Below are positions 1 through 18,332 of a stretch of DNA of 64,000 nt, piece after piece; the first letter of the stretch is position 1, and each line of letters begins with the position of its first letter. This stretch comes from an uncultured bacterium. Its GTDB lineage: Bacteria > Omnitrophota > Omnitrophia > Omnitrophales > Abzuiibacteriaceae. The notes below the pieces were generated by a model. It saw only the letters and a list, made by a program, of their open reading frames with translations. It did no database searches and was not told the DNA's origin. The DNA lies in assembly GCA_964387845.1 (NCBI GenBank), contig CAYLXA010000011.1:1-64000 (forward strand), read 5' to 3'. The position numbers and the translations under genes are program-made.

Positions 1-171
1 TTAATACCCGACTATTTTAACTCCAAGTGGTGCACTTGCTTATTGAACTTTTGCTAATACTTCACCTTATATTATTACTATTCAGTAATATAAATTAACT
101 TTAATAATACTTTTTATACCGTTTATATTGAAAAATGAGGATTTTTAGGTATACTTTTATCAATTCGCCAT

Positions 172-3100
172 TTGGAAGGAATGTCGAATTATCCTCCGGC
201 AAGAATAATGAGATCACAAATTATTTTCCTCAAAGTTGTCGCCATCACGCTTTGTTTTACATTTTCGGTTACCAGCACAATTGCCTATGGCGATTCGTCT
301 GTCATCATAGAATCTTTCAAGCATAATGCATGGCACGTCACGCCCGCATTTCCGGGGAATAAACCTGCCCAACTCCTTGATTTTGCCCGCAAAGCCGATC
401 TCGTTGTTGCCAGCGGACGTGCGGAGCTTCGTGCAAAAGAGCTGCAAGCTACAAGCCTCAAGCTGCAATCTGATCCGTCCGCGCTGAAAGTCTTGAAGCC
501 TGAAGCTGAAGAATCCCGATCTGAATTGAGGAACGAAGAAGGTGAACTTATGAAACGTCCTCGCGCGCGGCGTGACGCTCGGGAGGACGCCGCTGAGATT
601 GAGCCCGCAGTTGAAACTGAGGCGGTGGTCCAAGCCGAAGACGCTGAAATCAATTACAACCATTTTGCGCAAAGAATTATTAATGAACCGGTGGGGAAAT
701 TGCTGATCGATAAATCTATGGTTGAACAGATCGGCAAGTTAAACGTACCGCAATTCAAACAGATGTTTTATATGGATGTGGGGGCACTCAATGCGTATTT
801 CGTCTTGTATACAATGATCAAGGAAAATCGGGAATTAAATCCGGCTATTCATGACCATATTTTGACGGAAGAAGCAAAGGAAAGGGAAAAAACGGCCGCA
901 GCGGACAAGGCTGTTCAAGCCAAAGCCCAGGAACAAGAAGTTACTGCCCGAGATACAGCTTCAAAAGTGAAGTTGGTTGAGAAAAAGCGGGCAAAGTCTC
1001 AGAAGAAAGAAGCCGGTATAGATACGATTGAACGTGTACAGCTGGCGCCGGTTGAAGCCACAAAATTGACGCAGGGACTTTTTAGGCGGACGTTATCAAA
1101 ATATAAACAGCTCTGGAAACAGATCAGACAAAATAATCTGGATAAGAAGGACCGTGCGTTGGTCATGGCGACAAACATTATGTTGCTGGGCGGCGCTGCT
1201 TTCAGCACGATGCTTTGGGTATCGACTGATTTCGGCAAATATGCCGCGTGGTTTGGATATTTATCAACCGTTTTTTTGAGTGAAGCCGGCCTGCCGCTGT
1301 TTGTTAATTTTGTGGGAACGATCGATGAAATGGTTTTGGATGTGAAGGCAGTCAACGCGACCGAACGATTTATCGAATCACTTGATCGCTTTGAAGAATT
1401 TTTCCGCCGAATGCCGTTAAATCCGATCACGGAAAAAGGTTTGATCAAAGGAATCCGGAGTTTGCCGGCTGAGATTCAGCTTGAGTTGAAGAAAATCTCG
1501 GAAGGCAAAGATTGGGATTACCGGAATCTTGAGAAGTGGTACGAAATCCGAAGAAATCAGGTTATCCGGATTTTGAGAAAAGCGGATCTTGTTATTCCTG
1601 GCGAATTGGAAAATGCGCCGGCTTGGCAGGAGGAGGAAAATGGTGGCAACCCAAGGGTTCATCGCGGCAAACTTCTAAAATTGGTTTCAGAAGCGGTTAA
1701 TGATTCACGCAACGCGAATCGGGTCGAGGAATATCGGAAATGGGCGGAAAAATACAAGAAGGCGCGGACATTATTGCGTAAGATCAAGGGCTTGAATGAA
1801 GAAGAGATGCACTTGCTCGCTGTTCAACTCACCACAACATCGTTTTACGGGCATCCGGAACTTGAAAAACGTCTGGTACGCGCATTCTCGCGTATCGAGA
1901 AACGCCAAAAAAACGCGGATCAGGCGGTCTTTCTTGACCGGGAAGAAGGAAGCAGTTATACATTCAGTGCGCAGGGCCTTGTTGATTACGTGGCCGCGCG
2001 CTTCAGATTATCGGAATCAGACTATGATCTGGAAATTGATCCGGTGCCGCCTGATTTTGTTAATCAGGTCCGCATCCGTTCCGAATTGCGCATCTCATTT
2101 CTTCAAAAACTAGCAATTATCACAACGTTACTGACCGCATTCTTTATCCCGAACACATCAAAAGCTTCGACCATTCCTGTCGGATTTATGCCGCCCATTG
2201 ACAGCGCTTACCTTCATTCAGAAGGCGTCAGAGAAATCCGAGACGATGAAAAAAATGTTTGGCAATATCAAAAATATTCCAACCTCGATATTTTAACCGC
2301 CGCCGCAGTTTTAAATGCGACGAGAGAAAGTCCAAACGCTTCAGTTGATGCTGGTGTGATTGGCGTTTTCAGAAATGAAAGGAAACCGCTTGAGGAGCGG
2401 ATCTTGGCAGCGACCGTTTTAATGCTTAAACAGAAGGATTTTAAGAAAGAAGCGGGTGACTTCCTGGTCAAAATTCTGCATGACGAAACCAAGCCCGGTC
2501 TTGACCGTACGATGGCCGCAGCGGCTTACGCGCGGCTCATTGACGAGTCCTCTCATAAAAAAACACATAAATTTGCTATGGATTATTTGGTACGGGTTCT
2601 TTATGACGCCGACAAGCCTTATGCAGAACGTTTATATGCCGCGTCAGCCTATGCGTTGTTCAAAGCAGGAAGAGATTACATTGACGGGCCTAATTATAAA
2701 ACAACCATTGAATATGCCATGAGCATTCTGGTCAGCGCATTGCATGATGAGGAAGCGCCGGTTTCTCATCGGCTGATTGCCGCTGCTGCTTACGCCGGGC
2801 TTGATGATATGAATTTCGGCGATACGCATGAATATGCTATTCGGTATCTCAAGCAGGTTTATCAAAATCCGAAATCTCAATTTTCAAACCGTGTTACAGC
2901 TGCAGCGGCGCTGCTTGCGGCGGATGAATATGATTCAGAAGACAAATTTCTGGCTCTTATGCTTCGTTTGCCGTCGTTTGATAAAAAAGGAAATGTTGTT
3001 AATGAAAGGACGCCTGTTGATTTGCTTGATGCGATTCAGAACGGTGCGTTAACAGATGCCGGTGCGCATGCGGTAAAAGAGAAATTAAAAACCATACTTG

Positions 3101-6100
3101 ATGAAGGCCGTTTGAACCATGACGTGGGTCTTTTAGTGCGTTACGCGGAGGTATTGGAAAATCCGACCGCCGTTGATTTTGCGGAAATTGTGAAACTGGT
3201 TAGTGCTGTGCTGCCTGATGAAGAAAATCGACTTGAGTTTTGGTTTGATATCGCCAAGAAAGTTCAAGATCCGGAAAAGTTTAATTTTAATTCTTACGTC
3301 TTAAAAAATCTTCTGACCGATCCCGTTCTAGATCCCGCTCAGGTCCCCGATCAGGAAATCATGGAATTCCTGATTAAGAATCATCCCGACCAAGAACTGC
3401 GCAAGCAGTTGAAAGTTCGCATGAAAGAGTCGCAGTGGCAAATGGTTAAGGGGACGCAGGTGGTATACCTTGCGCTGGTTTTTATGGTGGGTGTCGGAAT
3501 CAGCATCCAGCAAATGAAAGCCCGCCGCCGTTCCGAACTCAGAAGTATTTTGATTGAATTGTGGAATTCAGTCCAAACTATTGCACGTGATCCTATTTAT
3601 GGCCCGTCGTATGCGATTTGTTTCGGTTTGATGGCTTATATGGTAATTAAGTTTGGGCCGAGACGCGGCAGTTTCTTCCCGGGAAGTTCGCGGAATATAG
3701 AAAGAATGATCCGCGCAAAATTCAAGAATGCATCTCCATCAGATTTAGATCAAGCCCGGACGATTGTCAAAGAACTTCGGGATAAAATCGAAAAAAACCT
3801 GGAACGGCCGCATTTCGAAATACGCTATGTGCTTCCTGCGATTATTCAAAGTGCAAACAGCGTTGAGCAATTGAGAAAGTTTGTGGAATCCTTGGGCGTC
3901 TGGAAGGATGCCGGATGGTTTGATCGATTAATTGGCGGAGTTCTGCCTTTATCTTTGGTTGGACGCCTTGGTGAAGCACCTCTTTTAGTCGGAAATCCTT
4001 ATGAAAAGCCGGCAATTGAAAAGGCGATGAAAGGGATTGCCCGGGCTATTCAGAGCTCCGATGAATTCCGAGAAGGGTTTGAAACCGTTGTCATTTTCTT
4101 TGAAAAATTGAAGCAGGCAACTGCAAGAAAAAAATATTTTCGAAACGAAAGTATTATTTCTCCTCAAGTTGCTTGGGAAGAACTGCTCCAGAAAGCGCAC
4201 CAAATTCGGATGCAGCACGGCGATTTTACCGTTTCTTTTCAGCCGGAAGAGCGGGAGATCATTAACAATCGCTACACTGACAAAGTTCTGCAACACCAAG
4301 TAATTTCTGTCAATGAACCGAGCGTGGCTTCTGCGCGTTCCGTCCCAACTCACAATAAAATGCCGGGAACGTCTATTGATGGGAAAGTTGGGACGGCTCA
4401 GACTTCCGATGAAAATTCGTCAGGTTCTTCAATGAAAGTCAGGGCCGAATTGCGGCAGGCGAGCAGCCGCATGCGCGCCAAGCAGGAACGTTTATTTACC
4501 GAGCGCGCGGCGAGCCGGCGTATTGCAAGAATTGACCGATGGTTTCAGCATTATCATGATGATTATGACATGAACTGGAACCCCGAATTTTTTGCGAGTA
4601 AGCACGAAACATTCCTGGACCGTATCAAAACACAATTGCGGGATTTTGAAATCGAGAACGAAGCTATTGATATCGCGATAGAACAATCCATGTCAATTTT
4701 AATAGCGGGCGTTCCCGGCGGCATCATCCGCGCTTTCCTCAAGCGTTTTACGAACATGGTGCATCGCCATATTTACGGCCCCGTGGCGGTAGAAGAAATC
4801 AATGACCGCATGCGGCATTTTAAAGAAAGAATTGATAGAAGTCTTGAATCCGCCGCCAGCCTCGATGAAAGGCGCCGCTTGATGAAAGGTTACCGCTTAA
4901 AGCACGGCTATCTTTGGATAGACAATGTGAGGACAAGTTTTGAGGAACTTCCGGTTGATCATTCTACCGCATCTACCGTGAAAGTGATCGGCCCGCGTGA
5001 AATGAAAATCCATCAAATTGCCGGCTACTTCGAAAATATTTTGCACCGCAAGAGAGGATTGCTGACGGATCAAAAAGACCATGAAATTCTCAAGTTTCTT
5101 GTCGGCCGTTTAACGGATTCTGACCCTTGGGTGGTAAAGGCGGCAGTGTGGGGGATTAACCGTATTGCGGACCGGATGGATCCCGTGCTCAAACAATTTA
5201 TTTTGGAGCGTTACTATGAAATTCTGAGCGGCAATCACAGTGAAGTTGCCCGGGGCTCTATTGCACGGTCCATCCGTGAAGTTTTTAACCCGCAAAGTTT
5301 GGATGTCGCACTTGAGATGTTGAAAACGGAGCAAACCGAATGGGTGCAGACTTACCTCGTTGAGGTCATTCAAACCATTGTGAGCCAATCCGATAAAAAA
5401 TCACTCCGCTACAAACATTCCCGCGACATTATCGAGCAGCTGCTTGAGAAGGCGGTCGGTGATCCTGACGCAAAAAGATCGCACATCATGCTGCGCGTCG
5501 GAAGCATTAAAGCATTGGCCGAGCTTTTATGGTATGACCCTGAAGTTTTGGACCGCTTGAAAGAAATGGTTTTAACCGAGCCGGATTCTACCATTCAAGA
5601 AGCTGCAATGTGGGCACTTGCAAGATTGCATGTGGCAACGCCGGAAGGGATGGCTCAGATCGATTCGTTGCTAGAAACTTTGACGGCATATCTGGAAAGC
5701 AGTCATGCAGGCCGAAAAAACGTTTTCTTAGAACAATATGCCAGACAGCTTCTTTTTTGGCTGCAGCGGCTTTCGTCCAATCGAGATCTGAAAGCAAAAA
5801 TTTTATCGATGAAGCGTACGAATCCTGATTTTTCTTTGACCGAGAAAATTATTTTAGGCGCACTGAACCAGATTGAAAAATATACAAAGAGATTGAAACT
5901 GCTGGAACATGCAAATTGGATTTTTGAGTTGTTCCAGAGTGCGATTTTTAGGCGCGCCCGCTCAGGCTCAGCCCGTACATTAACAGCGTATCATGACCGA
6001 TTGAAAGCACAGGCCAAACGTGACGCGGTTTATTTCAGCGGTCGCGCGATGAATCCGGTTATTTTACTCGACATCGATGCGATTCTTCCGAAAGAGGGCG

Positions 6101-9100
6101 ATGAAGCCGCAAAAGCATCTGAATCCGACCACGTTTTCGATATTTTAAAATCGTTTATGGATAGAGGCTGGAGCGTGGTCGCGACAGACCGGTATCGCGA
6201 AGAGCGTGATGCAGCTCACTTCAACGTTGCCCAGGGCGCCGAAATGAAATTAAAAAGCAAGGTGCTCAGGCAAGCCATCAAATTTTTGGCGTCAAACCGC
6301 CCGATCCGTATTCCTTCAAAAGACTGGTCGCGGGGCAAGCGGCATCAGCGCATGTCCGGCCTCTTGGTTCCTGTTCCGGACGAACCGATTGTCGTGCTTG
6401 TACACGGGCCGGAACTTTGGATGGTGAAAGACATCATGCCCGGCACTTTTTCGGGAATCGTATCGGTTGGTGATTATAAAGATGCTTCTAACGGTGTCTA
6501 TTTAGACAAACTCATTGACGCCATCGAAAAGAAAGCCAACGGCCGGATTGTTCAGCGTGAACCGTCACGTTCTGAGCTGCGGCATGGGCCTGAAGATTTT
6601 GTCAGAGACGAAACCGCGCGAATGGTTCGTGAGCTGGTCGGCACTTTCTACAAAAAATCTGTTTATCCTTTCGCGCACGAAATCGACAAAGGCAATATAC
6701 GCATTGAAGATCAAATTTTAGAGGAAGCGGCCCAGGCGGGGCTTTTCGGCCTCGCGATTCCGGAAGAGTTTGGCGGCTCGGGCCTCAGCCCTATTTTAAA
6801 AATCATTGCCGACATCATCGGCTGGTATATCAATCCTTCCGTTGCGCTTTCGATCGGTGTTCACAATAGCGTTGTCAAAGGGCCGATTCAAGATTACGGA
6901 ACGGAGGAGCAAAAAAAGAAATATCTCACGAAACTCGCGAGCGGTGAATTGATCGGCGGCTATGCGCTCACAGAATTGGAAGCCGGGTCCCAGGCATTGA
7001 GCAAGCGGTTTCCACTCCAGACGACCGCTGTCCCCGTGGAAGTCGACGGAAAACAATACTACAAACTAAACGGAACCAAACGGTTTATCACGAACGCCCG
7101 TTTTGCCGGTGTTTTTGTGGGTTTTGCGATGCTGGGTGACGAGCGAAGAGTATTTATCATTGATCGTGACTTGGAAGGTGTTTCGGTCGGAGAGGACGAG
7201 CAGAAAAGCGGTTTAAAAGGTTCTTCGACCGCGGATTTAATTTTGCAAGACGTTTTGGTTCCGGCTGAAAATCTGATCCCGGGAGACGGGATCAAAATCG
7301 GCATGTCTACCATGAGCCAGGGGCGCCTCAGCATCGCCGCAAGCGCTTTGGGCGGAAGCATGCGGATTTTTGATGATACGCTGGAATATTCGAAATTGCG
7401 CAAACAATTCGGCGGGCCAATTTGGCAATTCGGCGGCGTTAAGCAAACTCTGGCGGAAATGGCCGCGGATCTTTACGCGCAGGAGTCCGTTGTTTATGCG
7501 GTCGCATCTCTGCTGACCGAAGGCAAAGTGAATGCGGCATTTGAATCGGCGGTTGCCAAAGTTTTCGTGACGGAGAAATTTAACCACATTGCCCAGAAGG
7601 GCGTCAAAACACACGGCGGCGCCGGTTACATTTCGGATACGCCCACGGCGCGCATCGGCCAGGATGCGATTGTTACTGAAATTTTTGAAGGCATGAATGA
7701 TGTGCTTTATTCGAACGTGATTGCAGCCCTCTATCTTAAGAAATTGATGACGGAAGGCAATCAGGTGCTGAACATCTCGGATTACGGCCAGTTTTATCCG
7801 GAAATCCAAAAACTTTCGAGTTTAATCGGGCAAACCGGTAAAGTCATTCTCGGAAAATTCGGAACGCTCACGCCGGAGAATCAAGATGAGTACATGGCAT
7901 TCGGGAAAATGGCCTCCGAATTTTACGCAATTGTGTCCGCAGTGCGCAGGACCCGGAAAATAACATCAGAAATTAATCCGGATGACCCCAAACTGAAGCA
8001 TTTTTTGGATGTCACACGGCTGGTTGTAGCGAGAGGCACTAAACGGATCCGCGATGAGGCGTCTCATTTTGTAGATCCGGATGTGTTCGGCGTTTCTTCC
8101 GACCAGCGTAAGTATTTTGAATTAACCCGCGGCATTGCGGAACATCTCGTTGTCAATCCGCCGAAACGCATTGTTGAATTCAACGCCTCAAACGAAAGTC
8201 AGTCAAGCCGCGCCGAGCTTCGTCTCGATCCCGTTTATCTTGTCGATTTGACAGTGTTTGGCTTGCTTGCCATTTTACCGTCTTGGTTTGCGCTTAAACT
8301 GACAACCGAGCGCTATGCTAAGCGAACGATCGATCAGCTATATTCGCCGGCGGTTCAAGAAGAGATGGATGCGAATCGTTCTTTCAATGTCAATTTTTTA
8401 ACATTTTTTTATGACCGGGCAGTTCATTGGGTCCGGTTTCTTGTAATATCATTTTTGCACGGTTTTAGTGCATGGGTAGCCAGCTATTACGCTTTCGCCA
8501 TGTATTATCCGGCGGCTTCAATTTTTTGGCCTCTTGTTGCGGCTGCGGCTGCATTTGGCGCTTCCGGTGTTTCTTTATGGATTCGCGACAAAAAGCAGGT
8601 GCGGCAAAAAATAACTGTGGCTGCACAAATTCCGGCCAAGCAAATTCACGGAAAGTTTGAGCTGAATTTTGATTTGGTTTTTGGCTTTGATTTACGCGAA
8701 CTTTTAGACGGTAAAACAGGGGAAGAGCAAGCGCTTCAAAATTTACGGGCAAAAGTAGAAGAGCAGGTGGAGAGGATCGCCGCAAACAAGGGCGCCGTTC
8801 CCGCCGAGGTGGGAAAAGTTTTGGTTCCGGTGACGCCTGAAAGCTTTGCGAGCACAGGACCCAATTTCAAAGTGGAGGGCCTTCGCGGCCAGTTTACAGT
8901 TCGCATCCCTCGAAGCAATATCAATACTATGCACTCTTTTCCGCTCAATGTTACGTCCGTCTATTTGGGCGGCCAAAAAATCGCGGTCGGCACCGTGTTT
9001 TTCGAGAAAAATAAAGATGCGCGCTCAGAGTTGAGGTCCGAGGGTGCAGCAAAAAGTGCTTTTTCGAATTTCTTAGCGAGTGTGCCGGAAGATTCTGAAA

Positions 9101-12100: not shown

Positions 12101-15100
12101 GCCTGATTCCAACTATCCGTCAAATGGCGCTGACGGAGAAGAACGCGCTCTTAAGATCTCATGCCATTATTTTCTTTCTCGCTCTGTCTTTGCGGTATCC
12201 TCAGTTCAGAGGAAGCCGAAGGACGTTAAAACGCTTAGCGCCCGAATTGGAGCGGTATGTGCTCGAAGGGAAGGATTCCAACATGACTCAAACGGGTATT
12301 TTAGTTCTTGAGCATCTTTGGCGTCAGTTAGACAAAAATCCGGAGCGCTTCGAAACATTTATCAGCCGGTATATTTTCGGAGAAAACCATGCGCCGACCG
12401 GAATTCGGCGTACTGAAACTTATTGGGCGGGCAAATTAGCGCACTCCGAAATCTCGGAAAAGATGCCGACTCTGGACCGGATTCTGGCTAACAATGATCA
12501 GTTATCTCGTTTTCTCACTTTTCTTTCCGTTATGCGGCTTGCTTATCCTTATAGCATGATTAATGGTAGTTATGAGCGCCCGATTGCTTGGGCTAAGAAG
12601 AACCAAAAGATTTTTAAGCTCGACGAGCTCCGCATTGCGTTTGTCAGTGAATCATACCGCCGCCATATTATTTTTACGGAAGACCAAAGTCTTGCACTCG
12701 AAATAAAATTCCCAGGCGAACGCGCTTCAAGCGGCGATGTTTCGAAAATTCACGTGACATTGGCCGAAAAGTTGCGGCAGCAGCCTAAGGGTGAAACGGT
12801 GGTCAGCGAACCACTCTTTTTTATAGGTTTGAAAGGGTTATTCAATCTTTATGGCCCCCGGGAAACCTCGATTGAATATAAAGAATTTCCTTTGGGAATT
12901 GTGGGGTTCCGGTATCAAGACTCGAAACGTTTGCGTAATGTGCTTGAAGATAAAGAATTGTGGCAAGCATTTGTTGAGGAAGCTTATGGGCCATCGGACA
13001 AGTATCAACAAAAGGCCTATGTGCGGATTGCTGCGGATTTAATTATTTTTGCACTCAAGATTCATGAATTGGGTTATCAGGCCAGCACGCGCCGCCTAAC
13101 GGATCTTCACCTTGAAAATTTTGCGCTGTTGCCCGACGGCCACGTTTTTTCCGTGGCTGATTTCGGAATTTATTCCCGTAGCGGCAGCCGTTTAACCAAA
13201 TTCCGTAAAAGAAAAGAAACAAGCGGCCTGCTTGCTGCATTAACGGCTTACAAAAGCAGTCTCATTAGCGCTTGGGACAATCCGACATTTGTCATGGAGG
13301 TCGTTGACGCTGTTTTGGTTAAACTTTTAACAGGCGTTACCGATCCGGCAGAAAGAACAGAAATCATTCTGCGTGTCTTTGGGGAAGTGCGGGATATTTT
13401 TGAAAAAGTCGGCATTTCACCGCTATTCGAGGATGCGCTTGTGCGGGCTTGGGATGTTAATCAAGAGCCGGATGGATATGAAGTCCGTCAAAAAATTGCA
13501 AAATCCATCATTTCCAGATCGGTTATCGCTATTGGAATCGCATCCGATGCGTGGTCTGCGCTTCGATACGACAAAGATCAAGAAAGATTGATTACATCAC
13601 CGCTTCCGGACGATCTTGTGCATCGATTCTGGGATCATCCGGAATTGTTGCAACCGCTAGAACCGGTATTGCTAAGTGATAAAGAAGTTAATCTTCTCGA
13701 TAAAGCTTTCAAGCTTCTGCCTGAAGTGGATCGAAACCAGTTTACGTCGGATCCTAATTCTATGATCGTGTTAATGAAAGGAATGGATGCGCACATTGCA
13801 GAATCAACGATTGATTTCAAAAGATTGACGAACCCGCACGCCTATCACGACTTGGTGTCACCGCGTTTCTTTTTTGACCAGCGGCTGATCAAAGACCCGT
13901 TTGAATTCATGAAAATACTTCACAACGAGATCAAACTGCGGAATGCGATTCTTCAGAGTTTAACCGAAGATGAAATCGCGATGCTAAAAAACCGTCATTT
14001 GCCGGCTGAGCTTCAATCGAAAATCATGAAAAAAACACAGGAAACCAGAGATTTGCAGTGGGACACTTACTTTCGATCAGCCGGAAAGCAAGAACCCAAT
14101 CAAGAACAATTAAGTCTTTTGGAGGACCTTATTGTCTATGGTGCGCAGGATCATTTGCATAAAACATTCGAGTCTCCCGCAGAAGCTTTGTTGGCATTAG
14201 CAAAATCATTAGGAGAATTGAAAGGCGCTCAAAAGAAACGAACTCAAGATTTTCTATTTTACATTCACAACGAAATTTTATCTTTGATTCTGCTCAATCC
14301 AGATGCGGACTTAGATTTAAGAATATCGGCGGTTGTCTATGAGATAGAAAAGGCCAAGTTAGAATCGTTTGCGCTTTTGACTGCCGAGCCATTGGCACGG
14401 CATTTGGAGCGTATCTACGACCGGCATAAAAACGTCCGGCTGCGTGTTGTAATTCTTCGCTTCCTAGCAATTGTTCATGAGCAAGTTGAGCGGGAGATGA
14501 GAGATAATTTAAAGTCAGGGGACAATTTAGTTAAAACTCGTTACGTCGTCGAATCGATTGCCTGGAGGATGGCAGTCGGCGTTTTGAAAAACAATAAAAG
14601 CAAACGTGTCGAAAAGGAGATCGTTAAACTTTTGCTGCAGCTTTTACGGCCTTATGCCGCGGTCTCTCAAAAACCGAATCATGGGCAGTTACGTCTGCTT
14701 CTTGAGGAGGCTGTGATTTACATAAACCAGAATATCGAAAAAGATCCTTCAAAGGAAAAAAACAAGCTGCTTGCCCTGGCAATTTTAAGCAGGCAGATTC
14801 CGATTGCAAGCGACTATTTGGAAGCTGCGCTATTGCGGTATATTTTCGATTCAGATGACATTAAAGGAATACGGATGCGAAAGTCTGGCTATCCGGCGAG
14901 CGATGCTATTCAGCCTTTTGAACAAAGCATGCCCACGCTTATTCAAATATTGAAAAACAAGCAGTATTTAGCGCGTTTCATGGTTGCGCTCAGTATTTTG
15001 CGTGAAGCTTTTCCGTACCACGTCCCCAATTCGCATGATTTTAATGAAGACCTGCTTGAAACCGTAGAAACCAGTGGCGCCGTGCGGCTGAAAGAGCTCT

Positions 15101-18100
15101 TAATCGCGCCGCTTATGCATGAATATTCAAGCCACTTGGTTTCCACAGAGGACGGCCGCAATGTTTTGCGGCTGGTGATTCCGGGCGATTCTGTGCGGCA
15201 TTTTAGTAACCATCTTCGGAAAAATCATGTAGGCAAAAGAAATTTATTATTTTTTATTCCCATCCTCGGCGTCCCATTTTTGTATGGAGCTCTGGATTCC
15301 CATCGACTTTCGGGGTTTGCGGGTTACCGGGAACGCGCCAGTGAAGGTTTGACCATGAAAGAAATCAGAAGGCGTGAAATGATGAATGATCGGATTCCAT
15401 CGTTGGTCAGGACGATCTTGACGCACTTTGGCCAGAAGTATGATGCATCGGCGCTTCATGAAGCATTGGTTCGTCAGGATGTCAATCAGATCACAAAACT
15501 CATCTTCAGCGATGAATATTATCAAGATTTCAAGCAATGGCTGCTCAATTATATGCGGAACGTTTTTCATATGGAAGAAAGCGAAGTTCCGGATGCCTTC
15601 CGGCGTGCTTTAAAACAATACTTTGAGAAGAAAGAATCGCTAGGCCGCACAGAAGCAGCCGTAAAAAAATCAGCAGAAGGAAGCGACGCTCAATCAAAAT
15701 CCCGTTCAGAGCTCAGGGCAGGTGAGTTGTCCGCGGAAGTCCAATTGGCCAATGAGATCACCAAAGCCGTCACAAATTTTGCATTGTGGAAATCATCGGA
15801 ACACAAAATGTCGGTCTCTCGTCAGCAAATGCAAGGCTATAGAGATGCGCATCGGGAAGCGGATGCTTTGGTTAAGGCCGGAATCAAAACTTTGTTACTT
15901 TCCAGGGAAAGGGCAAAGCTCATTCAAGCTCGAACTGCAGTTCAACAGGCTATGAACCAGAGCGGCGTGACGGCAAAGGCAAAGAAAAGATACGAGTTTT
16001 ATATTGGGTTGCTCAATCAAGCCACCGAAAATCGTTCCGTCCCGACTCACAATAAAACGCCGGATCAGACTTCCGTTGAATATCCTCGCAATTCTTCAAT
16101 GAAAGCCAGAGCCGAGTTGCGTTCGAATCAAGCGTATCTTTGGAAATCGAAAATTACATTGGAATTGGCAAGCCCGGCCGGGAAGCCGGACGCTCCTAAA
16201 CGGTATATATTTGAAATAGAAGGCCGCAAATTCATGACGTTCGATGATCCTGATTCGGCCATTGAAATTGTGGGCGAAAGAGCGACCGATCTTGGTGTGC
16301 ACGATCCTTTTCTCAGTATTATGATCACCGAATTGCTGCCGTGGATTTTTGTTGAAAGCTTCAAAAATAGGAGGGTACGCCAACCAGACGGAAATTTTGC
16401 GCTTCAATTTCCGGAACTTGATTCCGGAGAAAAAGATATATTGGAAAGCGAAGTGCAGGTTGCTTTTGGTATTGGGAGTCAGCCGAGTTATGTTGCGTTT
16501 GGCCCCCGATGGTATCGCTTACCCGAGCGCGAATCGATTAATCAGATTGTCAATCAGGCCACCGATAGTTTTGCAGGTGATGATTCAATCGAAAAGCGTG
16601 CAGTGCCGGCTTTGGTGACTTTGGTCAAAGTTTTGAATGACGAAAGCCGAAGCGATGTTGAAACTTACATCGAACAGAAATTTGGTCCGCATGAATTCTT
16701 AAAACGTATGCTGACTTCCGAGAGAGTTACAAAAAACACTTTTTTTGATTTTGTCCGCCGTAATTTATTTTTGGAGCGGATCGGTGAAAAGTGGTTTCCC
16801 TACGGCCTATATACAGATACTAGGCGGTCTGAGCTAAGGCATGATTTTCGCTTTCTCCTAGGAATAGAGCGCGAAGAAGAAATGCAGAAAATCTTCGACA
16901 AGATTAAGCGGGGAGATTCCAACGACATCGAGCAAGCCTTAGGTTCCTTGATTGATTTTATCGGTACGATTCCCAATTTTTTAGATGACCGAAAGTGGGC
17001 GGAATTAAGGAAGTGGATTGCCCGGAATGTGGTTGGCAGCATCAATGTTTCATCTTTTAATACAGCCGGTATTCAAGATTTACTTATCCGTTTTTACAAT
17101 ATCCTGCCGGGCCCTACGACATTGGCTCTGTCTGCTTCGCTGGATGATGAAACCGAATTTGGTGAGCGCATATTTATATTAACTTTCTTATTAGCGGGTA
17201 TTCAAGAATCCGAAAACATAGCAAAGGTTGTATTGCGCAATCGTGTTTTTCAACGAGAAGCAAGCCGGCCAAAAACCGATAATGAAGCCCAGCTTTTTAA
17301 TCAAATTCACCAAGCAATCGATAGAAAAATTAAAGATCAGGCTTCGCCTAGCCCGGCTGCCGGGGAATTATCCGACCCACGATCTGAGCTTCGGATTGCG
17401 TTTACGGATGAGCTTCATCCGGAATTGTTAAGCAGGGAATTTGCAGACGAAAATTCGATCCGAAACAATTTAATAGAGGTTATGAGCGAGCCCAAGACTC
17501 GTGTGGAACTGTTGGGAATTAAAACAGGCGAGTTCATTCAGCGCACGATGGGCAAGATGCAGGTTGTTTTCGAGAAAACCGGCGAACGGGTCGATTCCCT
17601 GACGGGTGAACATGTTATAGAAATCGAATTTAATGTGATTGCGACAAAAGTTCATACCGAGTCCGGAACTATCGAAGCGCGAACGAAACCAAACAGCCGG
17701 TTGTTTGAAGGGCTAAATGCCGGTATCGTGCCGGAAATTAAAATTCGTTTTAACACGGCAATGACGAACGGGATTCGTGCGGTCAATGCGCGCCACGGGG
17801 AAATGGACGAAATTTTCGCTTCTCAAGTTCCGGATTTGGCGAGCGGTTTGGAACGTGTCGGACCCATTGCGGGCCATGATCTTATTTTCGGTGAGGATGG
17901 ATCGCCGCTTTTTGCGGAATATTTTCTTAAAAGATTCGGCGTTCTGGCCGTCGTTACGAGTTCACAAGCTGAAGAAGACTTTTTAGATCCGATCCGGGAT
18001 GACTTACAAAACGGGGAAGTGTTGATTGTCGCTCAAAGTTTTGAAGAAGCGCGCTTGGAACTTAGGAAAAGGGGATTTACGAATCAATTATTGCTTGTTT

Positions 18101-18249
18101 CCGAGTTTGATTTCGTTTCTGATTCGGTTAAGTCACGGGCCTATCAAATGAAAGTCTTCAGCAGGTCTGAAATGCGGCGGTTGCTTTCGGTTGTGGAAGA
18201 GGCAGCCATTCAAATCCGTTCGGAGCTCCGGACAGCCGTTTCGGCGTAA
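172..18249 (+). CDS. giant multi-domain membrane protein (6025 aa): N-terminal signal/TM, HEAT-like repeat arrays, acyl-CoA dehydrogenase-like domain, alpha/beta-hydrolase domain, APH/kinase-like motif, multiple TM clusters; recurrent SRSELR motif
   Basis: Single uninterrupted ORF from the six-frame track. Domain-level similarity in one frame throughout: ACAD motifs (PEEFGGSGLS, LNGTKRFITN, FEGMNDV), hydrolase GYSMG nucleophile elbow, HEAT-like AAAAYA repeats. The likely true start is ATG at 181, preceded by GGAAGGA; the TTG at 172 is the track start. A hydrophobic N-terminus (IIFLKVVAITLCFTFSVTSTIAYG) suggests a signal peptide or anchor. Stop is TAA at 18247-18249. Confidence 0.8.
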   Translation: MEGMSNYPPARIMRSQIIFLKVVAITLCFTFSVTSTIAYGDSSVIIESFKHNAWHVTPAFPGNKPAQLLDFARKADLVVASGRAELRAKELQATSLKLQSDPSALKVLKPEAEESRSELRNEEGELMKRPRARRDAREDAAEIEPAVETEAVVQAEDAEINYNHFAQRIINEPVGKLLIDKSMVEQIGKLNVPQFKQMFYMDVGALNAYFVLYTMIKENRELNPAIHDHILTEEAKEREKTAAADKAVQAKAQEQEVTARDTASKVKLVEKKRAKSQKKEAGIDTIERVQLAPVEATKLTQGLFRRTLSKYKQLWKQIRQNNLDKKDRALVMATNIMLLGGAAFSTMLWVSTDFGKYAAWFGYLSTVFLSEAGLPLFVNFVGTIDEMVLDVKAVNATERFIESLDRFEEFFRRMPLNPITEKGLIKGIRSLPAEIQLELKKISEGKDWDYRNLEKWYEIRRNQVIRILRKADLVIPGELENAPAWQEEENGGNPRVHRGKLLKLVSEAVNDSRNANRVEEYRKWAEKYKKARTLLRKIKGLNEEEMHLLAVQLTTTSFYGHPELEKRLVRAFSRIEKRQKNADQAVFLDREEGSSYTFSAQGLVDYVAARFRLSESDYDLEIDPVPPDFVNQVRIRSELRISFLQKLAIITTLLTAFFIPNTSKASTIPVGFMPPIDSAYLHSEGVREIRDDEKNVWQYQKYSNLDILTAAAVLNATRESPNASVDAGVIGVFRNERKPLEERILAATVLMLKQKDFKKEAGDFLVKILHDETKPGLDRTMAAAAYARLIDESSHKKTHKFAMDYLVRVLYDADKPYAERLYAASAYALFKAGRDYIDGPNYKTTIEYAMSILVSALHDEEAPVSHRLIAAAAYAGLDDMNFGDTHEYAIRYLKQVYQNPKSQFSNRVTAAAALLAADEYDSEDKFLALMLRLPSFDKKGNVVNERTPVDLLDAIQNGALTDAGAHAVKEKLKTILDEGRLNHDVGLLVRYAEVLENPTAVDFAEIVKLVSAVLPDEENRLEFWFDIAKKVQDPEKFNFNSYVLKNLLTDPVLDPAQVPDQEIMEFLIKNHPDQELRKQLKVRMKESQWQMVKGTQVVYLALVFMVGVGISIQQMKARRRSELRSILIELWNSVQTIARDPIYGPSYAICFGLMAYMVIKFGPRRGSFFPGSSRNIERMIRAKFKNASPSDLDQARTIVKELRDKIEKNLERPHFEIRYVLPAIIQSANSVEQLRKFVESLGVWKDAGWFDRLIGGVLPLSLVGRLGEAPLLVGNPYEKPAIEKAMKGIARAIQSSDEFREGFETVVIFFEKLKQATARKKYFRNESIISPQVAWEELLQKAHQIRMQHGDFTVSFQPEEREIINNRYTDKVLQHQVISVNEPSVASARSVPTHNKMPGTSIDGKVGTAQTSDENSSGSSMKVRAELRQASSRMRAKQERLFTERAASRRIARIDRWFQHYHDDYDMNWNPEFFASKHETFLDRIKTQLRDFEIENEAIDIAIEQSMSILIAGVPGGIIRAFLKRFTNMVHRHIYGPVAVEEINDRMRHFKERIDRSLESAASLDERRRLMKGYRLKHGYLWIDNVRTSFEELPVDHSTASTVKVIGPREMKIHQIAGYFENILHRKRGLLTDQKDHEILKFLVGRLTDSDPWVVKAAVWGINRIADRMDPVLKQFILERYYEILSGNHSEVARGSIARSIREVFNPQSLDVALEMLKTEQTEWVQTYLVEVIQTIVSQSDKKSLRYKHSRDIIEQLLEKAVGDPDAKRSHIMLRVGSIKALAELLWYDPEVLDRLKEMVLTEPDSTIQEAAMWALARLHVATPEGMAQIDSLLETLTAYLESSHAGRKNVFLEQYARQLLFWLQRLSSNRDLKAKILSMKRTNPDFSLTEKIILGALNQIEKYTKRLKLLEHANWIFELFQSAIFRRARSGSARTLTAYHDRLKAQAKRDAVYFSGRAMNPVILLDIDAILPKEGDEAAKASESDHVFDILKSFMDRGWSVVATDRYREERDAAHFNVAQGAEMKLKSKVLRQAIKFLASNRPIRIPSKDWSRGKRHQRMSGLLVPVPDEPIVVLVHGPELWMVKDIMPGTFSGIVSVGDYKDASNGVYLDKLIDAIEKKANGRIVQREPSRSELRHGPEDFVRDETARMVRELVGTFYKKSVYPFAHEIDKGNIRIEDQILEEAAQAGLFGLAIPEEFGGSGLSPILKIIADIIGWYINPSVALSIGVHNSVVKGPIQDYGTEEQKKKYLTKLASGELIGGYALTELEAGSQALSKRFPLQTTAVPVEVDGKQYYKLNGTKRFITNARFAGVFVGFAMLGDERRVFIIDRDLEGVSVGEDEQKSGLKGSSTADLILQDVLVPAENLIPGDGIKIGMSTMSQGRLSIAASALGGSMRIFDDTLEYSKLRKQFGGPIWQFGGVKQTLAEMAADLYAQESVVYAVASLLTEGKVNAAFESAVAKVFVTEKFNHIAQKGVKTHGGAGYISDTPTARIGQDAIVTEIFEGMNDVLYSNVIAALYLKKLMTEGNQVLNISDYGQFYPEIQKLSSLIGQTGKVILGKFGTLTPENQDEYMAFGKMASEFYAIVSAVRRTRKITSEINPDDPKLKHFLDVTRLVVARGTKRIRDEASHFVDPDVFGVSSDQRKYFELTRGIAEHLVVNPPKRIVEFNASNESQSSRAELRLDPVYLVDLTVFGLLAILPSWFALKLTTERYAKRTIDQLYSPAVQEEMDANRSFNVNFLTFFYDRAVHWVRFLVISFLHGFSAWVASYYAFAMYYPAASIFWPLVAAAAAFGASGVSLWIRDKKQVRQKITVAAQIPAKQIHGKFELNFDLVFGFDLRELLDGKTGEEQALQNLRAKVEEQVERIAANKGAVPAEVGKVLVPVTPESFASTGPNFKVEGLRGQFTVRIPRSNINTMHSFPLNVTSVYLGGQKIAVGTVFFEKNKDARSELRSEGAAKSAFSNFLASVPEDSEKWKSFLREQLALFAAEWVKLPGELQNFFPEETHLFQEFTADNIPAVNLDNFFKLAAVRDAVVDFMPKLNQSSSLPQNAEAVQIPGFNGALLDGWVIRAADSKQENHPAFLILPPWGDDISKYGKLAELLHQEFPSFHVIGLDYTKDPNLETILNTGGIAESFDIEAVIRALSRFSDLKIDPSKITGIGYSMGANTLAILQKRTGLLSHFVPIGLHDSYASVLAGYYENVHIPRIARIVTRRGYSFIDWTDPMIREHAKRLLIEARLRMNQFTIARREIPVKPEDDPFLDLAETASSLQIPVHFVFEEESDLLQESVRDFYRALAGQMNESGRTAQYNTYPGKHNKIDPASLVSDLKTFLTSRSELTSARAEPKTISASSQSAMMSELRKQNHFILFVAGSILFWAGCLMTEQKPVSEMPAETPIEQIAETSEPVTNAPADDISEPAEIQKQPRAPPKSEFETLLEALETGNDDERWDAAKTLSRSANSAASGTFLKALQDSNSLVRREAIIFFRYHHDPRAPKVLIELYRKELDLGIRSDIVETLGILQSAEAVSFLIQRIKREDGAAFYVLKRALVRIGVQAIEPLIDAIRFEYNKELAAKYEETLREIFRNPDAAEQRKKAEKHWYEAVRRAALGITSRSELRKFHEPKPQASGVDAGIYIEGLEKVIRANRFSALRYDRTKKRWVMTSILIDGKKRKGLLLSRKQLDGVNLAFSTLHQKLQKEMTEKSNARIIFVKGLMPILGNHMPWVQRPAGLSGFSKPDFILDRNAAYNPLALLDQFEYEIRRKRLMAGQFSPAEKRELIRNPNTFDLRVKFKQVYLEAHAQLIQDNVINSRDELSFYDSTQRTRLLELVILQAAQEATQVRYRSVENALKALDEAAKDGNHSGHQVAIGILALHASDIAARLIKKSDNESIKIAALDYIASALIDQDTASPAIEITGGLHHEIRNILTNSKNPRLKAAALQLFTVLIYVQLVDSNEKLNALEYHYANLELVIRSLIPTIRQMALTEKNALLRSHAIIFFLALSLRYPQFRGSRRTLKRLAPELERYVLEGKDSNMTQTGILVLEHLWRQLDKNPERFETFISRYIFGENHAPTGIRRTETYWAGKLAHSEISEKMPTLDRILANNDQLSRFLTFLSVMRLAYPYSMINGSYERPIAWAKKNQKIFKLDELRIAFVSESYRRHIIFTEDQSLALEIKFPGERASSGDVSKIHVTLAEKLRQQPKGETVVSEPLFFIGLKGLFNLYGPRETSIEYKEFPLGIVGFRYQDSKRLRNVLEDKELWQAFVEEAYGPSDKYQQKAYVRIAADLIIFALKIHELGYQASTRRLTDLHLENFALLPDGHVFSVADFGIYSRSGSRLTKFRKRKETSGLLAALTAYKSSLISAWDNPTFVMEVVDAVLVKLLTGVTDPAERTEIILRVFGEVRDIFEKVGISPLFEDALVRAWDVNQEPDGYEVRQKIAKSIISRSVIAIGIASDAWSALRYDKDQERLITSPLPDDLVHRFWDHPELLQPLEPVLLSDKEVNLLDKAFKLLPEVDRNQFTSDPNSMIVLMKGMDAHIAESTIDFKRLTNPHAYHDLVSPRFFFDQRLIKDPFEFMKILHNEIKLRNAILQSLTEDEIAMLKNRHLPAELQSKIMKKTQETRDLQWDTYFRSAGKQEPNQEQLSLLEDLIVYGAQDHLHKTFESPAEALLALAKSLGELKGAQKKRTQDFLFYIHNEILSLILLNPDADLDLRISAVVYEIEKAKLESFALLTAEPLARHLERIYDRHKNVRLRVVILRFLAIVHEQVEREMRDNLKSGDNLVKTRYVVESIAWRMAVGVLKNNKSKRVEKEIVKLLLQLLRPYAAVSQKPNHGQLRLLLEEAVIYINQNIEKDPSKEKNKLLALAILSRQIPIASDYLEAALLRYIFDSDDIKGIRMRKSGYPASDAIQPFEQSMPTLIQILKNKQYLARFMVALSILREAFPYHVPNSHDFNEDLLETVETSGAVRLKELLIAPLMHEYSSHLVSTEDGRNVLRLVIPGDSVRHFSNHLRKNHVGKRNLLFFIPILGVPFLYGALDSHRLSGFAGYRERASEGLTMKEIRRREMMNDRIPSLVRTILTHFGQKYDASALHEALVRQDVNQITKLIFSDEYYQDFKQWLLNYMRNVFHMEESEVPDAFRRALKQYFEKKESLGRTEAAVKKSAEGSDAQSKSRSELRAGELSAEVQLANEITKAVTNFALWKSSEHKMSVSRQQMQGYRDAHREADALVKAGIKTLLLSRERAKLIQARTAVQQAMNQSGVTAKAKKRYEFYIGLLNQATENRSVPTHNKTPDQTSVEYPRNSSMKARAELRSNQAYLWKSKITLELASPAGKPDAPKRYIFEIEGRKFMTFDDPDSAIEIVGERATDLGVHDPFLSIMITELLPWIFVESFKNRRVRQPDGNFALQFPELDSGEKDILESEVQVAFGIGSQPSYVAFGPRWYRLPERESINQIVNQATDSFAGDDSIEKRAVPALVTLVKVLNDESRSDVETYIEQKFGPHEFLKRMLTSERVTKNTFFDFVRRNLFLERIGEKWFPYGLYTDTRRSELRHDFRFLLGIEREEEMQKIFDKIKRGDSNDIEQALGSLIDFIGTIPNFLDDRKWAELRKWIARNVVGSINVSSFNTAGIQDLLIRFYNILPGPTTLALSASLDDETEFGERIFILTFLLAGIQESENIAKVVLRNRVFQREASRPKTDNEAQLFNQIHQAIDRKIKDQASPSPAAGELSDPRSELRIAFTDELHPELLSREFADENSIRNNLIEVMSEPKTRVELLGIKTGEFIQRTMGKMQVVFEKTGERVDSLTGEHVIEIEFNVIATKVHTESGTIEARTKPNSRLFEGLNAGIVPEIKIRFNTAMTNGIRAVNARHGEMDEIFASQVPDLASGLERVGPIAGHDLIFGEDGSPLFAEYFLKRFGVLAVVTSSQAEEDFLDPIRDDLQNGEVLIVAQSFEEARLELRKRGFTNQLLLVSEFDFVSDSVKSRAYQMKVFSRSEMRRLLSVVEEAAIQIRSELRTAVSA
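2395..2950 (+). other. tandem ~47-aa HEAT/ARM-like repeats (motif R..AAAAYA.L.D....YA..YL..VL.D...P, 4-5 copies) inside giant ORF
   Basis: Repeated protein motifs AAAAYARL / AASAYALF / AAAAYAGL / TAAAALLAAD at regular ~46-47 aa spacing in the translation. Confidence 0.5.
4336..4455 (+). repeat. intragenic direct repeat copy 1 (encodes SVPTHNKMP...SSMKVRAELR) in giant ORF
   Basis: About 90% nucleotide identity to 16034-16122 over ~90 nt (cgttccgtcccRactcacaataaaaYgccgg ... cagacttccgWtgaa ... ttcttcaatgaaagYcagRgccgaRttgcg). Copy 1 has a ~30-nt insertion. Confidence 0.75.
6655..7745 (+). other. acyl-CoA dehydrogenase (ACAD)-like domain embedded in giant ORF
   Basis: The translated segment KSVYPFAHEIDKG...FEGMNDV carries canonical ACAD N-, middle- and C-domain motifs: GLFGLAIPEEFGGSGL, GGYALTELEAGSQ, LNGTKRFITNA, GGAGYISD, FEGMNDV. 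It begins directly after SRSELR copy 4. Confidence 0.75.
9350..10140 (+). other. alpha/beta-hydrolase fold domain (serine hydrolase, GYSMG nucleophile elbow at 9661-9675) embedded in giant ORF
   Basis: HPAFLILPPWGDD...HVIGLDY...GIGYSMGANTLAIL... followed later by Asp/His candidates (HFVFEEESD..., PGKHNK). Typical order of an a/b hydrolase with a G-X-S-X-G motif. Confidence 0.6.
10500..10870 (+). other. PBS-lyase/HEAT-like repeat module in giant ORF
   Basis: ERWDAAKTLSRS...LVRREAIIFF...PKVLIELY...IRSDIVETLGIL...AVSFLIQRI resembles E-Z type HEAT repeats. Confidence 0.4.
12990..13180 (+). other. protein-kinase-like (APH/LPS-kinase/ELK superfamily) catalytic-loop + DFG motif in giant ORF
   Basis: ...ADLIIFALKIHELGYQASTRRLTDLHLENFALLPDGHVFSVADFGIY. 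DLHLEN (13102-13119) matches the HGDLHPGN/HRDLKPEN catalytic loop (D...N). ADFG (13156-13167) matches the DFG metal-binding motif at canonical spacing. Confidence 0.4.
16034..16122 (+). repeat. intragenic direct repeat copy 2 (encodes SVPTHNKTP...SSMKARAELR) in giant ORF
   Basis: See copy 1 at 4336-4455. Near-identical nucleotide stretch despite otherwise unrelated flanking sequence. Confidence 0.75.
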
Positions 18250-18254
18250 GATTA

Positions 18255-18332
18255 GTGGTAAGTGGTAAGTTGTAAGTAGTAAGTGATAAGCAATTCGAAT
18301 AACTTAAAACTTACCACTTATCACTTACAACT
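18255..18332. terminator. heptamer-tandem inverted-repeat hairpin (gtggtaa gtggtaa gttgtaa gtagtaa gtgataa ... cttaccacttatcacttacaac) between convergent genes; probable bidirectional terminator/structured element
   Basis: Five tandem GTNNTAA heptamers at 18255-18290, a ~20-nt loop, then the reverse-complementary degenerate heptamers at 18310-18332. It lies 6 nt after the giant ORF stop and 5 nt before the stop of the convergent minus-strand gene. Confidence 0.55.

Follow-up and report, generated by a model that had tools for sequence, protein, structure and literature searches.

The window analysed here comprises 64,000 nucleotides (positions 1 to 64,000 of contig CAYLXA010000011.1) from an uncultured bacterium of the phylum Omnitrophota, and close to its left end lies a giant open reading frame (ORF) of 6025 codons. 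The most informative feature of this giant gene – one missed in the first-pass annotation of the same DNA – is a pentapeptide, R-[S/A]-E-L-R. The gene specifies a precursor of ~670 kDa comprising ~14 protein-sized modules, and the joints are Ser-rich linkers that end in the motif. Our data make it likely that the motif delimits modules and that some specific factor reads it; the reading that we tentatively favour is that of a polyprotein.

The punctuated gene and its modules

R[SA]ELR occurs 14 times in the giant protein, against ~0.03 copies expected, with MSELR and RSELT as additional variants; there are no copies in the other five frames and none in the rest of the 64 kb, and 13,477 residues of neighbouring proteins contain no [SA]ELR. 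The 4-mers RSEL and SELR occur 11 times apiece in the giant, and the commonest 4-mer in composition-matched shuffles averages 3.5 copies (maximum 5). Ala stands in place of Ser in 4 of the 14 copies. Copies and variant are arranged as follows, (+) denoting the plus strand:

418-432 (+): RAELR, aa 83-87
517-531 (+): RSELR, aa 116-120
2077-2091 (+): RSELR, aa 636-640, with the signal-peptide-like segment ISFLQKLAIITTLLTAFFIPNTSKAS directly after it
3529-3543 (+): RSELR, aa 1120-1124
4336-4455 (+): junction cassette copy 1, RSVPTHNKMP...SSMKV-RAELR, including RAELR at aa 1424-1428
6568-6582 (+): RSELR, aa 2133-2137, 2 residues ahead of the start of the acyl-CoA dehydrogenase (ACAD) alignment
8209-8223 (+): RAELR, aa 2680-2684, with a transmembrane (TM) segment 5 residues on
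9022-9036 (+): RSELR, aa 2951-2955
10249-10263 (+): variant MSELR, aa 3360-3364, which begins the lipoprotein-type signal MSELRKQNHFILFVAGSILFWAG-C
11020-11034 (+): RSELR, aa 3617-3621
15703-15717 (+): RSELR, aa 5178-5182
16033-16122 (+): junction cassette copy 2, RSVPTHNKTP...SSMKA-RAELR, including RAELR at aa 5313-5317
16825-16839 (+): RSELR, aa 5552-5556
17380-17394 (+): RSELR, aa 5737-5741
18217-18231 (+): RSELR, aa 6016-6020, 5 residues short of the C-terminus; a related strain (L001) keeps the motif with a synonymous change

Among these copies Arg is written with all six of its codons, Leu with five and Ser with several, and the nucleotides that flank them are 26% identical, which is the random level. 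The sole exception at the DNA level is a linker cassette of ~100 nt that has been duplicated (4336-4455 versus 16033-16122, 79-94% identity). Since codons are scrambled and flanks are random, the motif is conserved as a peptide, independently at each site; for the same reasons DNA-level causes – a repeat, a restriction-site scar or an RNA signal – were ruled out.

Evidence that the motif falls at the limits of whole proteins came from several directions. Alignment of the ACAD module to full-length standalone homologues opens 2 residues past an RSELR, and beyond the last aligned residue there are 71 residues to the next RAELR, compared with 70 to the C-terminus in the standalone enzymes. Sequences of the kind found at N-termini stand right after three motifs: a signal-peptide-like segment at aa 641, a TM segment at aa 2690 and a lipobox signal, M-SELRKQNHFILFVAGSILFWAG-C, at aa 3360. 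For the three TM segments of S7 the positive-inside rule holds only with a free module N-terminus; were S7 a continuation of the cytoplasmic ACAD, two Lys/Arg-rich loops would face outward. Ser is enriched 2.4-fold in the 12 residues upstream of the motif. Read in this light, the ORF resembles ~14 complete proteins fused in frame:

220-276 (+): N-terminal signal-peptide-like hydrophobic segment, aa 17-35 (hydropathy)
532-2076 (+): module S2, aa 121-635, no known domain; TM hairpin at aa 330-384
2092-3528 (+): module S3, aa 641-1119, with an N-terminal signal/anchor, alpha-helical repeats and a C-terminal TM segment (aa 1094-1112)
3544-4440 (+): module S4, aa 1125-1423, no known domain
4456-6567 (+): module S5, aa 1429-2132, HEAT repeats at aa ~1639-1845
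6583-8208 (+): module S6, aa 2138-2679, a complete FadE-type acyl-CoA dehydrogenase
8224-9021 (+): module S7, aa 2685-2950, three TM segments within aa 2690-2802
9037-10248 (+): module S8, aa 2956-3359, putative alpha/beta hydrolase; degenerate RSELT at aa 3338
10264-11019 (+): module S9, aa 3365-3616, lipobox signal and HEAT_2 repeats (1e-17)
11035-13506 (+): module S10a, aa 3622-4445, helical N-part and kinase-like domain at aa ~4085-4425 (modelled: nt 12424-13521)
13507-15702 (+): module S10b, aa 4446-5177, arisen from S10a by ancient tandem duplication and without its kinase catalytic residues
15718-18216 (+): modules S11-S14, aa 5183-6015, four orphan segments of 130-274 aa for which no homologues were detected

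The first-pass annotation had listed HEAT arrays, an ACAD, an alpha/beta hydrolase, a kinase-like module and several TM clusters. Most of these stand. Pfam places HEAT repeats at aa ~1639-1845 and ~3437-3535 (HEAT_2, 1.6e-12 and 1e-17); found in S5 and S9, HEAT_2 is the sole repeated Pfam domain of a protein in which only 2 Pfam families are recognisable. S6 carries the three ACAD domains in order (PF02771, 7e-26; PF02770, 3.5e-14; PF00441, 6.7e-32) and matches NF058590 over positions 18-538 of 586 (9.6e-93), at 311 bits against an equivalog cut-off of 600 bits: its sequence is that of an ACAD family member, not of a named FadE orthologue. The nearest relatives of S6 are ~40% identical standalone proteins of 380 or 590 aa. 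Use of S6 as an anchor to diverged giants was abandoned, the top match, of 784 aa, being a double ACAD. The hydrolase fares less well, and its identity is weak: a nucleophile elbow, GYSMG, is present in S8 (aa 3164-3168, nt 9661-9675), but Abhydrolase_3 reaches a sub-threshold E=0.27 over 36 residues, and a sequence search of the PDB with S8 gave no meaningful match. Hydropathy identifies ~10 credible TM segments, all within the N-terminal 3,400 residues, so that the described alternation of soluble modules with TM hairpins applies to the N-terminal 56% of the protein and not to the last ~2640 aa (the C-terminal 44%), which are soluble-looking and have no convincing TM segment.

The remaining modules are orphans, with no known domain in Pfam or NCBIfam (Pfam / NCBIfam limits, E<=1 / 0.1). 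The same searches found in the giant no SecA-DEAD, C39, S8 peptidase or other peptidase, glycosyltransferase, methyltransferase, glycoside hydrolase, NUDIX or radical-SAM domain and, as first described, no Ig/cadherin, RTX, KS or condensation domain. Neither the C-terminal 856 aa nor S9 with its flanks gave a match in word-indexed searches, which missed even the giant itself; because an exhaustive search did return the giant, these empty results reflect a limit of sensitivity or indexing. Back-translated aa 2685-5177 found no relatives in 185,579 genomes and the JGI metagenomes.

The kinase-like module proved the most useful of the modules for finding relatives. Residues 3622-5177 are a tandem duplication (S10a/S10b, 24% identity, E=3e-27), and a two-copy profile run against 1.84 billion proteins retrieved 71 cluster representatives at E<=1e-3. 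In a 25-sequence alignment of the family core K95, N232 and D246 are invariant and D227 and H229 nearly so; these residues correspond to the beta-3 Lys, the catalytic loop D-x-H-x-E-N and the DFG Asp, and are kept in S10a and lost in S10b. An AlphaFold2 (AF2) model of the S10a core has a mean confidence (pLDDT) of 86.3 and a pTM of 0.86 – confidence collapses over the last ~25 residues, at the S10b junction – and in a Foldseek search of the PDB (250 matches at E<=1e-3) the top 50 are all kinases or other enzymes of the protein-kinase-like (PKL) superfamily. Judged by this model, S10a carries a protein-kinase-like fold and is predicted to be catalytically intact, in keeping with its first description. 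It sits within PKL by its Lys, its catalytic loop, its DFG Asp and its exclusively kinase/PKL matches, and apart from it by the family-specific SESFRRH and MPTL...YPY elements, by TM-scores of only 0.3-0.48 against those matches and by its degenerate second copy. The family has no match or model in Pfam or NCBIfam, and a PDB sequence search with its profile gave nothing meaningful.

Several further observations concern this family. Its members (the S10a core, 12424-13521, and relatives P0122-P0191) occur both as standalone proteins of 280-1100 aa and within giants, and share the signature MPTL..IL...RFL..LS.LR..YPY / SESFRRH / A[VI]E[IL]K[MI]PG / DGKR / D[ML]HxEN / [AG]DFG. The N-terminal sub-module of S10 (11035-11720 and 13507-14150) is a repeat family in its own right, found also in P0171 (4 copies), P0180 and P0188. 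Its relatives have a conserved H-E-x-x-E-[RC], and both copies in the window are degenerate; we considered and rejected a zincin peptidase, given that degeneracy and the HExxE, not HExxH, of the relatives. The HEIAHI segments seen in P0123, P0131 and P0132 have no homology to it.

Everything above presupposes that the frame is real, and the giant ORF is a genuine single gene. Its limits, and two signals that frame it, are:

128-155 (+): sigma-70-like promoter match TTGAAA-16-TATACT, 10/12, a consensus match only, upstream of the giant ORF
172-18249 (+): giant ORF, 6025 codons, TTG start at 172, TAA stop
18246-18340 (no strand assigned): very stable hairpin past the stop codon, -37 kcal/mol, z=-7.7 (folding)

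In-frame ATGs at 181 and 208 are likelier starts than the TTG, and the product is publicly recorded from ATG 208, as a 6013-aa protein (P0121) on a 98.7-kb NCBI contig. The other five frames of 172-18249 hold 195-387 stops each; at the stop probability of 0.055 per codon given by base composition, 6025 open codons have P ~1e-149. A codon model trained on 36 neighbouring genes scores the frame of the giant best in 118 of 118 sliding 450-nt windows, codon frequencies correlate with those of the neighbours at 0.91 in frame and 0.43 off frame, and GC1>GC3>GC2 holds in every segment. The coding signal is uniform in one frame, which leaves no room for a hidden frameshift, a non-coding spacer or a foreign block. 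The stop codons of the neighbouring genes are TAA (23), TGA (9) and TAG (7); the genetic code is thus standard, and the open frame does not stem from codon reassignment. On both counts – one gene, no reassignment – the first-pass annotation was correct. In addition, nucleotides 1-88 of a Logan contig from another sample (L001, a 94.5%-identical strain) encode KSEMRRLLSVVEAAAIQIRSELRTAISA followed by a stop, that is, the last 28 codons of the gene, and the stop codon is the same in this independently assembled strain.

That the frame is an artefact – an assembly chimera, compensated frameshifts or neighbouring genes fused via sequencing errors – is highly improbable: the sequence does come from a metagenome, its sole public copy is a singleton on one NCBI contig and Logan contigs break close to the 3′ end of the gene, but the single coding frame with host-like codon usage, the negligible chance of its arising at random, the same stop and same motif at the gene end in an independent assembly, and the recurrence of the punctuated architecture in unrelated ENA, JGI, NCBI and Logan assemblies all stand against it.

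Punctuated relatives and a candidate reader

Large relatives, found via the kinase-like module, were scored for the pattern [RKN][SAP]E.R, which is strongly enriched in four of them besides the giant:

P0122, 4156 aa: 13 observed versus 0.85 expected; NSESR, RSESR, KSEAR, RSEAR
P0157, 2101 aa: 5 observed versus 0.6 expected; RSEVR, RSEMR
P0158, 2036 aa: 4 observed versus 0.45 expected; RPEAR
P0172 / P0192, 1642 / 2696 aa: 3 observed versus 0.3 expected in P0172; RSELR (four copies in P0192, which also has one RSEVR)

A further case came from a degenerate DNA scan of JGI metagenomes for the end of the junction cassette. On a 41-kb metagenome contig (L091, OBEQ012820259.1), of which 2 kb were read, R[SA]ELR occurs 4 times in 685 aa (locus 1-2055, minus strand) of a protein unrelated to the giant except at the junction. 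Across the motif-bearing family positions 3 (Glu) and 5 (Arg) never vary, and the fourth residue is uniform inside each protein and different between proteins. The motif codons of P0122 are scrambled, as they are in the giant. Taken together, within-protein homogeneity, between-lineage divergence and codon scrambling speak for co-evolution with a specific reader, not for a generic linker.

Complete enzymes are set off by the motif in these proteins too. P0122 has a SAM methyltransferase (255 aa) and a metallophosphoesterase (364 aa) delimited in this way, P0172 a methyltransferase of 376 aa and L091 a HAD-type phosphatase unit of ~210 aa between two copies. The kinase-like module is bracketed by the motif on both sides in five proteins out of five.

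The surroundings of the relatives provided some observations of their own. The large genes that adjoin P0192 and P0158 do not share the punctuation, with one copy each; the former, directly upstream of P0192 (L097 1-7344; GCA_020049755.1, JAHZTO010000885.1), encodes 4009 aa and has one RSELR in its last 2448 aa. Downstream of P0122 (L096 13396-21459) lie genes for a patatin-like lipase, a ShlB/TPS two-partner secretion pair, a CHASE2-GGDEF protein and a Peptidase_MA_2 protein. P0182 (MBU1869039.1, Candidatus Omnitrophota, 5861 aa, partial) is punctuated not by S-E-x-R but by repeated hydrophobic cassettes ending in a lipobox-like ...GAPGAGVAC(A)AAP; these look like internal lipoprotein signals and are possible signal-peptidase-II sites. 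Other linker peptides are seen in TIKI-bearing relatives, namely AAPAAP (6-7 copies in P0179) and G-A-R-M-A (4 copies in P0183, a marginal enrichment).

A candidate for the reader is suggested by what stands at the head of the relatives. A TIKI-fold hydrolase domain is N-terminal in all four motif-bearing relatives from the protein search (P0122, P0157, P0158 and P0192): in these and in others the domain has a parallel beta-sheet core, flanking helices and a conserved His-Glu pair; in P0122 it lies at aa ~40-540, with residues His30 and Glu58 of the domain as candidates for the pair. The TIKI superfamily, which uses a His-Glu pair, includes sequence-specific endopeptidases (PMC6254334). The first motif copy in the relatives comes just after the TIKI domain, as expected for a self-releasing protease. 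The domain is matched by no Pfam or NCBIfam model above threshold, and a helical insertion of ~200 aa sets it apart from the rest of the TIKI/TraB/erythromycin-esterase/ChaN superfamily.

Readings of the motif

The central issue is what the reader does. We suggest that R-[S/A]-E-L-R may be the recognition site of a sequence-specific endopeptidase and that the giant product would be a polyprotein, cut at the motifs into separate proteins. Cleavage would allow the modules to be co-expressed at fixed stoichiometry, and S3, S7 and S9, once freed, could use the export or anchor signals at their N-termini. For the relatives, the likely reader would be their own N-terminal TIKI-fold hydrolase domain; for the giant of the window the reader would act in trans or be an unrecognised module. 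Cleavage is favoured because the units are whole proteins, because N-terminal-type signals, membrane topology and the position of the linkers agree with it, and because variants co-evolve in the company of a protease-type fold. On this sequence evidence we place the explanation as a whole just short of an even chance, and the narrower proposition that the motif-reading factor is a protease – that cleavage occurs – a touch below that.

A number of observations weigh against cleavage. The junction between S10a and S10b has no intact motif, and the copy 5 residues from the C-terminus, like the two within the first 120 residues, separates nothing obvious. The 64-kb window contains no protease gene; a TIKI profile run against all six frames of the window had no match, and HExxH, GDSGG and DTG protease signatures are lacking from the giant. 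By analogy with known members, a TIKI fold need not imply protease activity, since the fold also covers esterases and haem binders. Four TIKI-bearing proteins (P0129, P0171, P0179 and P0183) are without an S-E-x-R motif, and the association between domain and motif is weak (4/8 versus 1/14, one-sided Fisher p ~0.04, with many of the proteins partial). Finally, the signal-like segments would have to be cut free before they enter the membrane, a demanding requirement mechanistically.

The main rival is that the chain stays uncut and that the motif is a docking or regulatory peptide, bound by the HEAT arrays or a partner so that the chain would fold into a defined super-assembly, or a substrate of the built-in kinase-like module through the Ser at position 2. 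The motif lies in Ser-rich, probably flexible linkers; the giant has two HEAT regions, and repeats of the HEAT/ARM type are classic binders of peptides; its kinase-like module is, from the model, apparently active. The terminal copies (aa 83, 116 and 6016) are easier to reconcile with a tag than with a cut site, no protease turned up in cis, and homogeneity within proteins with divergence between them is also to be expected of a co-evolving binding domain. Phosphorylation, however, cannot be a general role for a motif in which 4 of 14 copies have Ala instead of Ser, and docking leaves unexplained the N-terminus-type signals (lipobox included), the free N-terminus of S7 and the agreement, to within 1 residue, between motif-bounded units and standalone enzymes. 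We judge this account unlikely, though a serious contender.

There may, alternatively, be no reader, the motif being a favourable linker or helix cap kept uniform within each gene by duplication of linker cassettes and gene conversion. S-x-x-E does resemble a helix N-cap box, and one linker cassette has been duplicated at the DNA level. Recent conversion is nonetheless excluded by flanks that, the duplicated pair aside, are at 26% identity and by codons scrambled in two independent genes, the retention of five exact residues requires long-term purifying selection, and a purely structural cap would neither vary by lineage nor be uniform inside each protein: such an origin is improbable. Little better placed, and slightly less probable still, is a topogenic role, in which the motif would be the positive n-region that orients the next hydrophobic segment as a single polytopic chain is inserted co-translationally into the membrane, possibly with ordinary signal peptidase I/II cutting the internal signals. 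Four copies (aa 636, 1120, 2680 and 3360) do have a TM or signal-like segment no more than 25 residues on, one with a lipobox, and the relative P0182 is punctuated by hydrophobic and lipobox-like cassettes. Yet 11 of 15 copies precede soluble sequence (the ACAD, the kinase-like module, the C-terminal 5 residues), the C-terminal 2640 aa hold six copies and no TM segment, and a need for charge alone would not account for the fixed Glu (position 3) and Leu (position 4). A scheme in which translation starts internally beside each motif, the ORF being an operon devoid of stop codons, is very unlikely: Met stands 3-5 residues upstream of three copies (MKV-RAELR, MKA-RAELR and MKARR-RSELR) and replaces the first Arg in MSELR, but most copies have no nearby start codon or Shine-Dalgarno-like sequence, conservation is of peptide and not RNA, and promoter and terminator scans within the ORF are at or below shuffle expectation.

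Returning to cleavage, a broader form of the polyprotein proposal embraces the relatives: giant ORFs of Omnitrophota and of uncultivated lineages close to it would make up a family of polyproteins encoded on bacterial chromosomes, each a string of complete enzymes and membrane proteins, with sites of the form [R/K/N]-[S/A/P]-E-x-R that would be cut by a dedicated endopeptidase – an N-terminal TIKI domain in most members, a factor in trans for the gene described here – whose specificity co-evolves with its sites. That co-evolution would be the reason why x is uniform within each protein and differs between lineages. In this general form we put the idea forward as a conjecture, with distinctly less confidence than we attach to cleavage of the giant.

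Genomic setting and known giant proteins

The nearest matches to the GlmU of the window among 185,579 species representatives are nearly all Omnitrophota metagenome-assembled genomes, at 41-49% identity. Because even the best relatives are only this similar, the host appears to be a deep-branching member of Omnitrophota without a close sequenced representative; as judged from GlmU, the assignment holds at phylum level only. Samples SRR15237816, SRR35204281 and SRR36519111 contain the organism. Synteny around GlmU, examined at 73 loci, revealed none with a related giant or with enrichment of the motif.

The rest of the window belongs to the core chromosome of a diderm bacterium. Two ABC permeases (BPD_transp_1, sugar-type import) lie immediately downstream of the giant gene, and the window includes genes for GlmU, Prs, L25, Pth, SSB, L9, DnaB, BamA and Skp, for LpxC-FabZ, LpxA, LpxI, LpxB, MsbA, S2, EF-Ts, PyrH, RRF and LeuRS, and for CTP synthase and KdsA/B. 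No type II secretion system genes are present in the 64 kb, and no viral genes surround the giant gene in the window. LpxC (UDP-3-O-acyl-GlcNAc deacetylase) and a FabA/FabZ-like dehydratase domain share a single ORF (30689-32050).

The hairpin at 18246-18340 is a probable terminator between convergent genes. It belongs to a strain-variable insert, a segment of ~550 nt (18250-18803) after the stop of the giant gene that is missing from the 94.5%-identical strain (L001). Inside this segment a minus-strand ORF (18337-18666) encodes a coiled-coil-like protein of 109 aa that has no Pfam match; a second Logan contig (L003), 100% identical, starts at 18300. AT-rich palindromic repeats, AAATTCAAAATT.. 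/ ..AATTTTGAATTT, flank the first ABC permease gene (family D1; 18918-18980 and 19887-19977), and downstream of ssb there is a perfect 27-nt direct repeat, TGGCGGCGGACGTTCAGGCGGCCGTTC, the copies of which (25551-25577 and 25605-25631) are 54 nt apart; this repeat (family D19) probably encodes a Gly/Arg-rich repeat, or is intergenic.

The giant had been described as having no known architecture. This does not stand: giant multi-TM, HEAT-scaffolded multi-enzyme proteins of Omnitrophota have already been described (10.1101/2023.11.21.568195; 10.64898/2026.06.07.730766; PMC10066038). Archaeovorins (West-Roberts et al. 2023), of which there are 46, exceed 30,000 aa (genes >90 kb), have HEAT as their commonest domain and numerous TM segments, and carry glycosyltransferases, methyltransferases, glycoside hydrolases, C39/S8 peptidases near the N-terminus, NUDIX and SecA-DEAD domains; their genes lie near genes for carbohydrate import or type II secretion (10.1101/2023.11.21.568195). 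The ‘multi-enzyme metabolic cluster’ class (Nielsen & Lui 2026) comprises proteins of at least 10,000 aa with many Pfams tiling the chain, a HEAT scaffold and a TM segment or signal peptide, and belongs to a catalogue of 916 proteins; 80% of such long proteins are sequence singletons (10.64898/2026.06.07.730766). With these proteins the giant shares phylum, many TM segments, HEAT repeats, assorted enzymes, unannotated stretches, orphan status and, in kind, the architecture (ACAD, HEAT, TM segments and signal); its sugar-type ABC neighbours may be a further parallel. It is far below their size cut-offs (18,078 nt, 6,025 aa), has only 2 recognisable Pfam families, is without SecA-DEAD, C39, S8, glycosyltransferase, NUDIX and radical-SAM domains and carries an ACAD and a kinase-like module instead. 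The giant is best described as a small cousin that works like these proteins, not to be filed as a member. A recurrent inter-module motif is not mentioned in the three studies cited above, as judged for the 2026 preprint by a term search, and a literature search on RSELR or on bacterial polyproteins turned up nothing relevant.

The nearest mechanistic analogues, if the giant is indeed cut, would be MARTX toxins and viral polyproteins. MARTX toxins free their enzyme modules through built-in protease cutting in linkers, and RRSP, a MARTX effector, has a TIKI fold; MARTX cut sites are Leu-small, unlike R-S-E-x-R. The giant differs also in having neither RTX/glycine-rich repeats nor a cysteine protease domain, in the absence of type I secretion genes among its neighbours and in modules that resemble housekeeping enzymes and membrane proteins, not host-directed effectors. 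In flavivirus-like polyproteins internal signal/anchor sequences stand directly past junctions, as they do in the giant. With viral polyproteins and the engineered ‘fuse-and-cleave’ nif polyproteins (PMC6130400) – the rationale of which is stoichiometric co-expression – the giant has in common one ORF, complete proteins and a short repeated motif that separates them. Unlike viral polyproteins it is chromosomal and placed among core housekeeping genes, and its cleavage is putative.

The giant genes of Omnitrophota are among the largest known. Cleavage of their products has been suspected, and the fact that the cut points are not known has blocked structural and functional analysis (10.1101/2023.11.21.568195). 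The motif offers a testable answer to whether such a product is one chain or a set of cut pieces: it shows where to split sequences for structure prediction, which peptides to seek by proteomics and which pairs of enzyme and site to test. Two uncharacterised families without a Pfam or NCBIfam model, the divergent kinase-like domain and the TIKI-like N-domain, are also delineated here. If the polyprotein reading is true, the motif would be the first concrete cleavage code for Omnitrophota giant proteins, its readers would constitute a new family of sequence-specific proteases, and polyprotein expression in the style of viruses would be a normal chromosomal strategy in bacteria.

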